Below, piece by piece: positions 12,988 to 26,427 of a DNA stretch of 42,891 nucleotides. Made by a program: the position numbers and the translations under genes. This DNA is from Candidatus Thorarchaeota archaeon (GTDB lineage Archaea; Asgardarchaeota; Thorarchaeia; Thorarchaeales; Thorarchaeaceae): the NCBI GenBank assembly GCA_048882325.1, contig JBHLRS010000027.1, positions 1 through 42,891 on the forward strand, given 5' to 3'. How positions within the stretch are numbered: the stretch's first letter is position 1; the number at the start of each line of letters is the position of its first letter. The notes under the pieces were generated by a model. The model had not been told where the DNA came from, did no database searches, and saw nothing but the letters and a program-made list of their open reading frames with translations.

Positions 12988-13320
12988 TTAGGAAGGGGAT
13001 TCAACATCCAATATTGGAATCACATACCTCTGGATATAACCAGTTTCAGCATCATATGAAACACTCTTGAGCGTGCTTCGGAACGCAGGAGCAATAAGAT
13101 CCTCATCAAATGAATGAGAGAGTAGAATGAGTTGGGCCCCTTGTGATGAAATGAAGAGAGTGGCTGTCTTGATTGTGTTTGAATGAGCGATTCTATCAAT
13201 CCCTTCCATTATCTCATCTGCAATTCTGATTGCAGCTTCGTAGACGGTATCGTGTCCAGAAACACCCCGAGCATCATAGACCATGTACGACGAGGTCCGA
13301 GTGTTCACCTGTGCCTCCAT
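12988..13320 (-). CDS. Hypothetical protein
   Basis: 110-aa ORF with TTTATA upstream. Confidence 0.7.
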   Translation of the reverse strand: MEAQVNTRTSSYMVYDARGVSGHDTVYEAAIRIADEIMEGIDRIAHSNTIKTATLFISSQGAQLILLSHSFDEDLIAPAFRSTLKSVSYDAETGYIQRYVIPILDVESPS

Positions 13321-13374
13321 GCTTTTCTGTACATTGTCAAGGGTATAAAATCACCGAGAAAAGTGAAAATGAGA

Positions 13375-13417
13375 AAAAGAGAATGAGAGTGCCCGCATTA
13401 CGCGAGCACACGCTCAT
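13375..13417 (-). terminator. Hairpin plus T-rich tract ending micro-protein cassette 2
   Basis: GTGCTCGCG-TAA-TGCGGGCAC with outer ATGAG/CTCAT, then TCTCTTTTT. Confidence 0.6.
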
Positions 13418-13445
13418 TTGATCTTCAATGGCTGATGCTCTGTGA

Positions 13446-13547
13446 CTACGCACCTTTACGGTGGAGCCAAGCAAAAGCCAGTGCTTCAGTGGTCCAGGCT
13501 TTTCGAGCCTTGGTCAACTTCTTTCTATCTGTTTTAGCTAGTGCCAG
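13446..13547 (-). CDS. Micro-protein B2 (33 aa, CTG start) MALAKTDRKKLTKARKAWTTEALAFAWLHRKGA
   Basis: AAGGAGGT SD 7 nt before CTG; 8/31 ungapped identities to B1. Confidence 0.6.
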   Translation of the reverse strand: MALAKTDRKKLTKARKAWTTEALAFAWLHRKGA

Positions 13548-13568
13548 TTTGATTACCTCCTTAATCGC

Positions 13569-13676
13569 TCACTTTATGCGAGCATAGTCGTAGTACAGGG
13601 ACTCAAGCGTTCTGAGTCTCGGATTCCGATTCCTTCTCATTATGAAGGGCTCATCCTTCTGATTTTCATCAGCCAT
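13569..13676 (-). CDS. Micro-protein A2 (35 aa) MADENQKDEPFIMRRNRNPRLRTLESLYYDYARIK
   Basis: GGAGGAG upstream; shares E.F..RR........LE.L.Y(D/E) with A1. Confidence 0.7.
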   Translation of the reverse strand: MADENQKDEPFIMRRNRNPRLRTLESLYYDYARIK

Positions 13677-13692
13677 TTTTCCTGCATCTCCT

Positions 13693-13729
13693 CCAACCGC
13701 CGTCATTCCTTTCGAACTCTTACGGTTGG
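13693..13729 (-). promoter_or_regulatory. 5' leader hairpin with possible kink-turn
   Basis: CCAACCGT/GCGGTTGG stem; alternative register CCG-TAA-GA-GTTC...GAAT-GA-CGG. Confidence 0.5.
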
Positions 13730-13731
13730 CA

Positions 13732-13766
13732 CGTATTATGTAATACTATTACAACATATAAGTATT
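13732..13766 (-). promoter_or_regulatory. Promoter of cassette 2 with TGTAATA-N-TATTACA palindrome
   Basis: Perfect inverted repeat 13739-13753 beside the TTATAT box; matches 674-708 and 14130-14164. Confidence 0.7.
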
Positions 13767-13901
13767 GTGGTTACGTGTTAAAGATTGGGAGTTGAATGGT
13801 TGAATGGCATAAATAATGTGCAAAACAAATAACAATGATCTGAGAGCCCACACCAATGCAGCCCCTCCACAGTGACGCAATGACTGATGCATCCAGTGCT
13901 A

Positions 13902-13997
13902 CTAAGCTCTAAAACTATAAGTACGTGCATAAGACTTAGTACGTTGAAGCTTGTGCTCTAGCTCACGTTTCAGCTTTTGATTTTCTGCTCGCGCCAC
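13902..13997 (-). CDS. Micro-protein B1 (31 aa, GTG start) MARAENQKLKRELEHKLQRTKSYARTYSFRA
   Basis: GAGGTGA SD 5 nt before GTG; double stop TAG TAG. Confidence 0.65.
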   Translation of the reverse strand: MARAENQKLKRELEHKLQRTKSYARTYSFRA

Positions 13998-14018
13998 CTG
14001 TGTCACCTCTCCTCTTGT

Positions 14019-14114
14019 TCACTCGTATATTTCATAGTGCAAGAATTCCAGGAAATGAAATCCTGAAATTTCATCTCTTCGCTTTGCGAAGGTTTCATTG
14101 GTTGCATCAGTCAT
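14019..14114 (-). CDS. Micro-protein A1 (31 aa) MTDATNETFAKRRDEISGFHFLEFLHYEIYE
   Basis: ATG just downstream of the promoter motif; 8/22 ungapped identities to the A2 core. Confidence 0.7.
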   Translation of the reverse strand: MTDATNETFAKRRDEISGFHFLEFLHYEIYE

Positions 14115-14129
14115 TCTTGTCAACCTGTA

Positions 14130-14164
14130 TGTAATATGTAATACTATTTTATGTAATAAGTATT
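14130..14164 (-). promoter_or_regulatory. Promoter of cassette 1
   Basis: 27/35 ungapped identity to 13732-13766. Confidence 0.65.
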
Positions 14165-14233: not shown

Positions 14234-14719
14234 ATGATGTTACTACGGCAACAAAACGTATGTCTTAATGTCGGAGAGGAGGCTCCTGACTTTGAATTGC
14301 CAGATCAAGATGGAAATAGGGTTCGCCTCTCAGATTACAGGGGGAAGAAAAATGTTCTTCTTGCACTGAATCCAGGGGACCTGAATGATTCATGCAAGAA
14401 CTACCTCTTACTCTACAGGGACAATCTTGAGAGCTACAAGGAATTAGATATCCAGGTTGTAGGAATAAACATGGATTCTATCAGGAAGAACAAGACATGG
14501 ACTCAGAGCATGCGGGGTCTCGGATATCCAGTCTTGTCTGACCGTGAACCCCTCGGCGATGTCACGCTAAGGTATGATTGCTTTGTTCCAAAACAAGGGT
14601 ATGGAAAGCGCGGACTGTTCCTCATCGACAAGGAAGGTATCATCAGGCATATCGAGGTGTCTGACGAGAGTGGAACCTGTCCAAACATCGGTGTATTGGT
14701 AAAGAGTCTCCAGACCTGA
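14234..14719 (+). CDS. Peroxiredoxin (AhpC/TSA family)
   Basis: [23 protein letters not shown]......[11 protein letters not shown]. Confidence 0.9.
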
Positions 14720-26341: not shown

Positions 26342-26427
26342 GTCAATCAAGACTCGCCTCATACAACGAGTCGTAACCCCGGGGCCAAAGTTAGTCTTCG
26401 TAACCTTTATTGTGTAATATTATTACA
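26342..26427 (-). promoter_or_regulatory. Conserved 5' leader element, copy 1
   Basis: 64/86 manual identity to 38860-38945; includes TGTAATA-T-TATTACA. Confidence 0.75.

Follow-up and report, generated by a model that had tools for sequence, protein, structure and literature searches.

The stretch of DNA analysed here (the window) is 42,891 nucleotides (nt) long, belongs to a Candidatus Thorarchaeota archaeon (GenBank assembly GCA_048882325.1) and is the entire contig JBHLRS010000027.1 of a 3.6-Mb, 93% complete assembly of sediment metagenome origin; genes for TBP are present in the same genome, as befits an archaeal host. It carries two tandem cassettes, all of whose features lie on the minus strand, flanked by a divergently oriented peroxiredoxin gene (14234–14719, plus strand; AhpC/TSA in a Pfam-A search) and by a gene for a 110-residue protein (13320–12988, minus strand). 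The cassettes follow a common plan, namely a promoter block with a palindrome, a first open reading frame (ORF A), a GGAGG-type ribosome-binding site (RBS) and a second frame (ORF B), a short 3' untranslated region (UTR), a GC hairpin and a T-tract, and each encodes two proteins of about 32 residues. In both, a segment shortly past the ORF B stop codon is complementary to the start of ORF A, and the long-range helix that these two arms would form in the mRNA is the subject of this report. Rfam 15 covariance models gave no match at gathering score anywhere in the window, and a literature search found no publication on such Thorarchaeota cassettes. The arms and reading frames are as follows.

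Cassette 1, 5' arm: 14096–14126, minus strand; core AATGACTGATGCA (14115–14103), which includes the A1 start codon, with an extension spanning nearly all of the short 5' UTR
Cassette 1, 3' arm: 13868–13898, minus strand; core TGCATCAGTCATT (13891–13879), with flanks CACTGG and GTCACTGT that pair with codons 4–6 and the 5' UTR
Cassette 2, 5' arm: 13667–13677, minus strand; AATGGCTGATG, over the A2 start codon (13676–13674) and codons 2–4
Cassette 2, 3' arm (the anti-start element): 13427–13437, minus strand; CATCAGCCATT, 8 nt past the B2 stop
ORF A1: 14019–14114, minus strand; 31 amino acids (aa) (MTDATNETFAKRR...), ATG at 14114, stop TGA; homolog of the ORF A family (hidden Markov model, HMM, 53.8 bits)
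ORF B1: 13902–13997, minus strand; 31 aa, GTG start (MARAENQKLKRELEHKLQRTK...), with a Shine-Dalgarno-like GAGGAGAGGTG upstream; HMM 54.4 bits
ORF A2: 13569–13676, minus strand; 35 aa (MADENQKDEPFIMRRNRNPRLRTLESLYYDYARIK), ATG at 13676, stop TGA; conserved in length and sequence
ORF B2: 13446–13547, minus strand; 33 aa (LALAKTDRKK...TEALAFAWLHRKGA), after the Shine-Dalgarno AAGGAGGT, with CTG in place of the ATG of homologs

A preliminary description of this DNA had reported exact complementarity between AATGACTGATGCA at 14115–14103 and 13891–13879 in cassette 1 and between AATGGCTGATG at 13677–13667 and 13437–13427 in cassette 2, and on checking both were exact. The 3' partner starts 12 nt past the B1 stop (TAG, 13904–13902) and 8 nt past the B2 stop (TAG, 13448–13446), upstream of the hairpin and U-tract. 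An inverted-repeat search of the region ranked the arm pairs of the two cassettes highest (13879–13898 with 14096–14115, 20 nt, 90%; 13427–13437 with 13667–13677, 11 nt, 100%). When AATGGCTGATG was searched for with at most one mismatch, six occurrences were found in the 42.9-kb window against 1.33 expected; four of them were the arms, and none of 100 shuffles reached six. DNA contigs of four sequencing runs differed from the locus by four single-nucleotide polymorphisms, none of them in the arms.

Single-sequence folding of both inferred transcripts placed the helix as the closing stem of the minimum free energy (MFE) fold, with energies of −91 kcal/mol (z = −2.3) for cassette 1 and −123.9 kcal/mol (z = −5.3) for cassette 2. 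The pairing of cassette 1, said earlier to be extendable beyond 13 base pairs (bp), grew in the fold to about 27 bp through the additional pairs UGAC/GUCA, ACAG/CUGU and CCA/UGG and reached the predicted 5' end of the RNA; its arms gave an RNAduplex energy of −29.2 kcal/mol, compared with a shuffled mean of −14.5. A bulge-helix-bulge stem for processing or circularisation was considered and rejected. That motif consists of a helix of 4 bp with a 3-nt bulge at either side, one on each strand, whereas the core here is an uninterrupted 10–13 bp and the irregularities in cassette 1, a 3x2 internal loop and a 2-nt bulge, fall on the same (5') strand.

In a search of the DNA of relatives, about 15 congeneric species had homologs of cassette 2 (68–79% identity), and further cassettes were found in genome and metagenome collections with the gene for the 110-residue protein as anchor, so that a total of 30 distinct Thorarchaeota cassettes could be aligned. 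The preliminary description had named homologs without the pairing as an observation that would speak against the fold-back; across this alignment the long-range helix is kept. RNAalifold, run unguided on 15 congeneric sequences, recovered the same helix. In this set 149 of 150 cells paired, compared with 14–57% when the 3' partner was slid, and in the set of 30 cassettes 93.6% paired, compared with 15–57%; none of 500 shuffles matched the observed percentage paired or the covariation score. Three pairs of the helix showed compensatory double changes. The first, G-C to A-U in six sequences, corresponds to the A/G difference between the two window copies (14111 against 13673) with its matching T/C (13883 against 13431), which had been put forward as covariation; it is genuine and recurs in other genomes. 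The second is C-G to U-A in four sequences (ATGGTT with CAACC), and the third G-C to A-U in a single one (GCTAATG with TATTGGC).

Changes on one side of the helix gave G.U pairs in 8/8 cases among the 30 cassettes. These would be A.C on the opposite strand, and the constraint therefore acts on the sense RNA and not on DNA. We accordingly give hardly any weight to the explanation that the arms are a DNA-level inverted repeat (half-sites for protein binding, or a recombination site) or arose by chance: as complementary segments they do form inverted repeats in the DNA too, but they lie 215–232 nt apart with the 5' arm inside coding sequence, the chance expectation is far exceeded by the six occurrences given above, and the register of the helix can shift while the pairing is retained. 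The last is seen in the divergent copy G003, where a D-to-E change removes two pairs at one end and five are gained at the other, leaving 13 bp (ACACAATGGCTGA / TCAGCCATTGTGT) in a helix moved upstream. Other clades have additional flanking pairs of their own. The spacing from the ORF B stop to the arm was 8–15 nt, with a mode of 9 nt (18/30 cassettes). The conserved core of the helix consists of the start codon and codons 2–4 rather than the ends of the RNA.

For an alignment-free comparison, RNAduplex was given a 30-nt window at the start and, as its partner, the first 55 nt past the ORF B stop. In all 28 cassettes that have the ATG, the AUG lay within the best duplex; energies were −17 to −34 kcal/mol, and the means for shuffled sequences −10 to −16. 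When the homologs were folded whole, the helix was present in the MFE structure of 17/28, and its mean pair probability was at least 0.5 in 21/28.

Both reading frames keep their lengths across the alignment; indels within them are multiples of three, compared with 1, 2, 4 and 5 nt in the UTRs and the A–B spacer. Third codon positions were the most variable (entropy by codon position 0.65/0.56/0.82 for ORF A and 0.57/0.46/1.07 for ORF B), and by these marks of selection both are genuine coding sequences. A single protein made by read-through of the ORF A stop (A-TGA-B) is in frame in both window cassettes, but it was rejected because the frame relation of A and B varies with the spacer indels of homologs and ORF B has its own Shine-Dalgarno and ATG. 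ORF A was found only in this genus and a more distant group of Thorarchaeota; in a search of a phylum sample it matched in the genus alone, save for one weak match with an internal stop in another family. ORF B belongs to a multi-copy family of frames of about 31–38 aa, found in 41/59 genomes of the same family and in 0/191 other Asgard genomes sampled. Neither frame, nor the read-through products, matched a Pfam-A family at E up to 0.01, and the ESM Atlas held no usable neighbour for ORF A or ORF B. Complex prediction for ORF A with ORF B gave a score of 0.02, which is evidence neither way.

The start codon of ORF B varies. At 13545–13547 ORF B2 has CTG, compared with ATG in 27 homologs, and shares it with its nearest relative, L044, the frame being otherwise intact; L048 and L049 have TTG, and the B1 orthologs of L036, L047 and L048 begin with ATG. 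CTG, GTG or TTG at this position suggests that ORF B is either initiated at non-ATG codons or translated by re-initiation following ORF A.

ORF A has been lost at least four times, and each time the 3' arm decayed, by 1–4 substitutions in cassettes without an intact ORF A, and ORF B stayed intact. The losses took the following forms.

L049: ORF A deleted; 3' arm CATCTGCTGT
L017, L048 and L062, second unit: no ORF A of its own; 3' arm CATTTGCCAT or TATTTGCCAT
L016 and L063: ORF A cut to 7 codons; 6+2 bp remain
L055 and L069: ATG changed to ATC, plus a frameshift; duplex z = −0.2, no better than random

In arrays of ORF-B-like frames without ORF A, on contigs C8, C14, C18 and C31 of the same genome, no pairing of start with 3' region rose above shuffles. 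The helix thus belongs to ORF A, since it decays where ORF A is lost and is missing from these arrays. Taken together, the comparisons indicate that the helix is a genuine structure of the sense RNA, under selection and linked to the presence of an intact ORF A. ORF A itself appears from this record to be evolutionarily more labile than ORF B. In two species (L014:1593-1739 and L012:682-798) the ORF A stop has been lost or its 3' end deleted, so that ORF A overlaps the RBS and start of ORF B.

The boundaries of the transcripts were predicted from promoter and terminator motifs, as follows.

Cassette 1 promoter region: 14137–14164, minus strand; TATA-like AATACTTAT (14164–14156) and a degenerate operator half-site ATAGTATTACA (14147–14137), aligned with the promoter block of homologs
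Cassette 2 promoter: 13739–13766, minus strand; TATA-like AATACTTATAT (13766–13756) and a perfect palindrome TGTAATAGTATTACA (13753–13739), near-invariant in the 30 cassettes
Cassette 2 5' UTR hairpin: 13688–13729, minus strand; CCAACCG (13729–13723) with CGGTTGG (13699–13693), then the Shine-Dalgarno GGAGGAG (13694–13688)
Cassette 1 3' hairpin and T-rich tract: 13819–13867, minus strand; TTGTTATTTGTTTTG, the presumed transcript end, deduced from the fold and less conserved than in cassette 2
Cassette 2 terminator-like element: 13374–13409, minus strand; GC hairpin GTGCTCGC/GCGGGCAC (13409–13389), conserved CTCATTCT, then T5 (13378–13374)

Transcription of cassette 1 is predicted to start at about 14136–14130. 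This cassette has lost both the 5' UTR hairpin and the Shine-Dalgarno, and its remaining leader measures about 15–20 nt. In the RNAalifold structure the 5' UTR hairpin pairs positions 39–43 with 71–75, with C-G changed to U-A at 43/71 in 6/15 sequences, and the 8–9 bp GC hairpin of cassette 2 (pairs 376–384/395–403) shows compensatory changes at five pairs. No oligo-T tract lies upstream of the 3' arm, and transcripts that get to the conserved hairpin and U-tract therefore include it. Between that hairpin and the U-tract, CTCATTCT (13381–13388, minus strand) is near-invariant in homologs. RNAalifold paired CUC of this element with a GAG in the Shine-Dalgarno of ORF A; this pairing is invariant, thus uninformative, and was set aside.

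The promoter block has the consensus AT-rich AATACTTAT[AT] with the palindrome TGTAATAnTATTACA, and in cassette 2 the palindrome TGTAATAGTATTACA is likely an operator, judging from its position and near-invariance. Several unrelated genes likewise have the TGTAATAnTATTACA palindrome or GTAATAC repeats between their TATA box and start, with sites at 13739–13753, 26413–26427 and 669–708 of the window and at C22:~11972, C47:~16672 and C3:~14136 in the same genome; by its distribution the recurring palindrome looks like the operator of one regulator. The promoter look-alike at 669–708 was rejected as a micro-ORF promoter, as it drives a long signal-anchored repeat protein, which is preceded by a long leader and cut off by the contig end.

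With the ends placed in this way, the arm, GC hairpin and U-tract resemble the layout of bacterial small RNAs derived from 3' UTRs (single-stranded seed, GC hairpin, U-tract), and such an RNA, consisting of the anti-start element and terminator hairpin and either cleaved off or made separately, could repress ORF A starts in trans, including that of the sister cassette. The cassette 1 arm is indeed able to pair with the cassette 2 start through G.U. We nevertheless consider a trans-acting RNA very unlikely, given that no internal promoter lies ahead of the arm, that genomes with a single cassette retain the helix, and that pairing within one molecule has the kinetic advantage over pairing in trans.

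The helix is most likely, on this comparative record, a translational lock built into the mRNA, such as has been reported to date from the mRNAs of bacterial toxins. Each cassette would yield one short archaeal transcript of about 310–360 nt, with ORF A and ORF B set between a TATA box and operator palindrome at one end and the GC hairpin and U-tract at the other. In the completed RNA the ORF A start region would pair with the anti-start element 8–15 nt past the ORF B stop in a helix of 10–13 bp, which lineage-specific extensions would take to about 27 bp. The mRNA would thereby be closed into a stem-bounded circle with the ORF A start codon buried and initiation at ORF A blocked, and ORF B could still be translated inside the loop from its own Shine-Dalgarno and start. 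ORF A would be translated mainly on one of three occasions: during transcription, until it is shut off by the 3' arm made some 230 nt later; when a ribosome that reaches the stop of ORF B opens the helix; or once a nuclease has trimmed the RNA or some other trigger has acted. Repression of ORF A by the helix, and every one of these routes of release, we infer from the position and conservation of the arms.

Release by a ribosome that terminates on ORF B is geometrically possible, although at a spacing of 8–15 nt it would only abut or fray the helix. Trimming of the 3' end, as in hok, is less straightforward, because the anti-start element lies 5' of the conserved 8–9 bp GC hairpin and not at the extreme 3' end of the predicted RNA.

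Known systems offer a comparison. In hok/sok of Enterobacteria (plasmid R1), fold-back inhibition through fbi/tac pairing leaves the completed transcript translationally inert. The cassettes share with hok the long-range pairing of 5' region and 3' end in a small mRNA that is strongly folded and has two reading frames, and cassette 1 also the participation of the very 5' end. They differ in that the start codon itself is paired, whereas the hok lock is indirect through the tac element, and in that the 3' partner lies upstream of the terminal hairpin rather than at the extreme 3' end. In aapA1/IsoA1 of Helicobacter pylori, a 5'-3' long-distance interaction hides the RBS until the 3' end is trimmed. 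There too the interaction covers the initiation region of an ORF of about 30 aa in the primary transcript, but the AapA1 peptide is a membrane toxin countered by a cis-antisense antitoxin, and it is the Shine-Dalgarno that is masked, compared with the AUG and codons 2–4 of an mRNA with two ORFs here. More loosely, the single-stranded RNA phages MS2 and Q-beta mask the replicase start with a complementary segment far away, and the passage of ribosomes opens it. As in the cassettes, a start is occluded from hundreds of nucleotides away and a ribosome on the other cistron could open it. The masking segment of the phages, however, lies in a translated upstream cistron, while that of the cassettes lies in the 3' UTR, 8–15 nt past the stop of the downstream cistron, and a ribosome therefore reaches it only at termination.

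The resemblance to hok raises the question of a full type I toxin-antitoxin system, in which ORF A (or ORF B) would inhibit growth, the inert mRNA would be kept in reserve until processing of its 3' end activates it, and the antitoxin would be an antisense RNA so far unseen. Besides the fold-back architecture, the bicistronic arrangement with possible coupling is in keeping with this, as are a copy number of 0, 1 or 2 at one site among related genomes and the asymmetric decay, ORF A having been lost at least four times with ORF B always kept, a pattern seen for toxin genes. Of the features that define hok/sok, 5'-3' fold-back pairing was found (conserved helix, compensatory changes, closing stem of the MFE folds), and a small hydrophobic membrane-inserting toxin was not. 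The peptides had been described as not hydrophobic, and this holds: the maximal 15-aa Kyte-Doolittle window was at most 0.52 and the GRAVY score lay between −0.48 and −1.44 for A1, A2, B1, B2 and the L009 homologs, so that neither peptide has a hydrophobic segment. On the opposite strand no conserved TATA-like block, promoter or ORF stood out in the alignment, which was not a dedicated test for a Sok-like antisense RNA, and a candidate plus-strand frame beginning at the 3' arm stops after 5 codons and was rejected. The cassettes are chromosomal and syntenic, with no evident mobile element around them, and the anti-start element would not be removed by simple 3' trimming. Type I systems are known so far only from a few bacterial phyla (PMC12390103). 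We regard a complete system of this kind as rather improbable. The cassettes are not members of the hok family, because the defining hydrophobic toxin was looked for and is absent; an Asgard host and the lack of any sequence or Rfam similarity set them further apart.

The same helix might, alternatively, promote expression as an end-to-end stabiliser or closed loop, mainly through protection from 5' and 3' exonucleases or by letting ribosomes that terminate on ORF B re-initiate at ORF A. The near-constant 9 nt between ORF B stop and helix would set a terminating ribosome beside the ORF A start, the conserved GC hairpin caps the 3' end, and the cassette 1 helix runs up to the predicted 5'-terminal nucleotides. 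The helix of cassette 2 and of most homologs, however, leaves out about 60 nt of 5' UTR with a hairpin of its own; the conserved core lies over codons 1–4 and not at the RNA ends, and the helix decays on loss of ORF A though ORF B still needs a stable mRNA. Interplay of the two UTRs in archaeal translation has a precedent in haloarchaea, where 5' and 3' UTRs must act jointly to set translational efficiency (Brenneis and Soppa 2009, PMC2636863); what was shown there is functional, defines neither a base-paired helix nor covariation, and concerns unrelated genes and an unrelated phylum. We consider a stabilising role unlikely.

We therefore favour, with modest confidence, the reading in which the finished mRNA closes on itself and would block initiation at ORF A, as in hok and aapA1. 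Several points weigh against it. The sequences are kin and variation of the 5' arm is limited by coding constraint, so that the compensatory changes amount to about 3–6 independent events, not eleven. Helix probability is below 0.2 in 7/28 intact cassettes, because a local hairpin competes for the 3' arm. The start and end of the transcript, and a single transcript for A and B, are deduced from promoter and terminator motifs. The nascent RNA would have a free Shine-Dalgarno and start for some 230 nt, and the lock is therefore not absolute; initiating ribosomes or helicases can, moreover, melt a helix of 10–13 bp. The competing hairpin, which pairs the 3' arm with UGGCUUAUGC inside ORF B, was itself considered as a conserved switch and rejected, as it occurs in some MFE folds of a single clade and its covariation was not above shuffles.

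What would be new in such a lock is a known type of fold-back mechanism in a new domain of life. To our knowledge, post-transcriptional control is poorly charted in archaea and hardly at all in Asgard archaea. The finding offers a start-codon-masking helix backed by covariation, natural loss-of-partner controls and two unannotated microprotein families, in an RNA compact enough, at about 360 nt, to be synthesised and tested in vitro though the organisms are uncultured; it also flags a family-wide set of genes of about 31 aa missed by gene callers. If the helix represses, direct circularisation of an RNA would be an ancient translation gate in the prokaryotic lineage closest to eukaryotes. A bolder version, which we think doubtful, would make the cassettes the first archaeal (Asgard) counterpart of the hok/aapA logic: a two-microprotein mRNA stored as a base-paired circle, with a potentially harmful or tightly dosed ORF A product made only co-transcriptionally or when ORF B termination or a nuclease opens the lock, and with ORF B, perhaps also the 110-residue protein, as partner or antidote.

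That neighbouring protein is encoded as follows.

110-aa gene: 12988–13320, minus strand; conserved, with its own TATA (TTTTATAC)

The gene directly follows the cassette on the same strand in 16/17 of the loci found through the cassette itself; in the more distant group the cassette lies just downstream of the gene instead. The protein has 58–82% identity to 74 database proteins, named as hypothetical proteins of Thorarchaeota and relatives, from assemblies labelled Candidatus Thorarchaeota, Sifarchaeia or Promethearchaeota. Its model is an alpha/beta sandwich (pLDDT 70.5). A Foldseek search of this model against the PDB returned nothing at E up to 0.001, and with VIA-align the highest Z, 5.9, was to generic alpha/beta sandwiches. 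From its near-constant company, the 110-residue protein may be a functional partner of the microproteins.

The ORF-B-like arrays mentioned above lie at C31:19950-20160, C8:65250-65470, C18:38800-39010 and C14:24850-25240, all on the minus strand. They consist of two to four tandem micro-ORFs of 30–38 aa, which start with MAL..., end in ...STDA[IL]tHaYxYRR and are probably unannotated. Within an array, the YRR-stop codons of one ORF double as the GGAGG site of the next.

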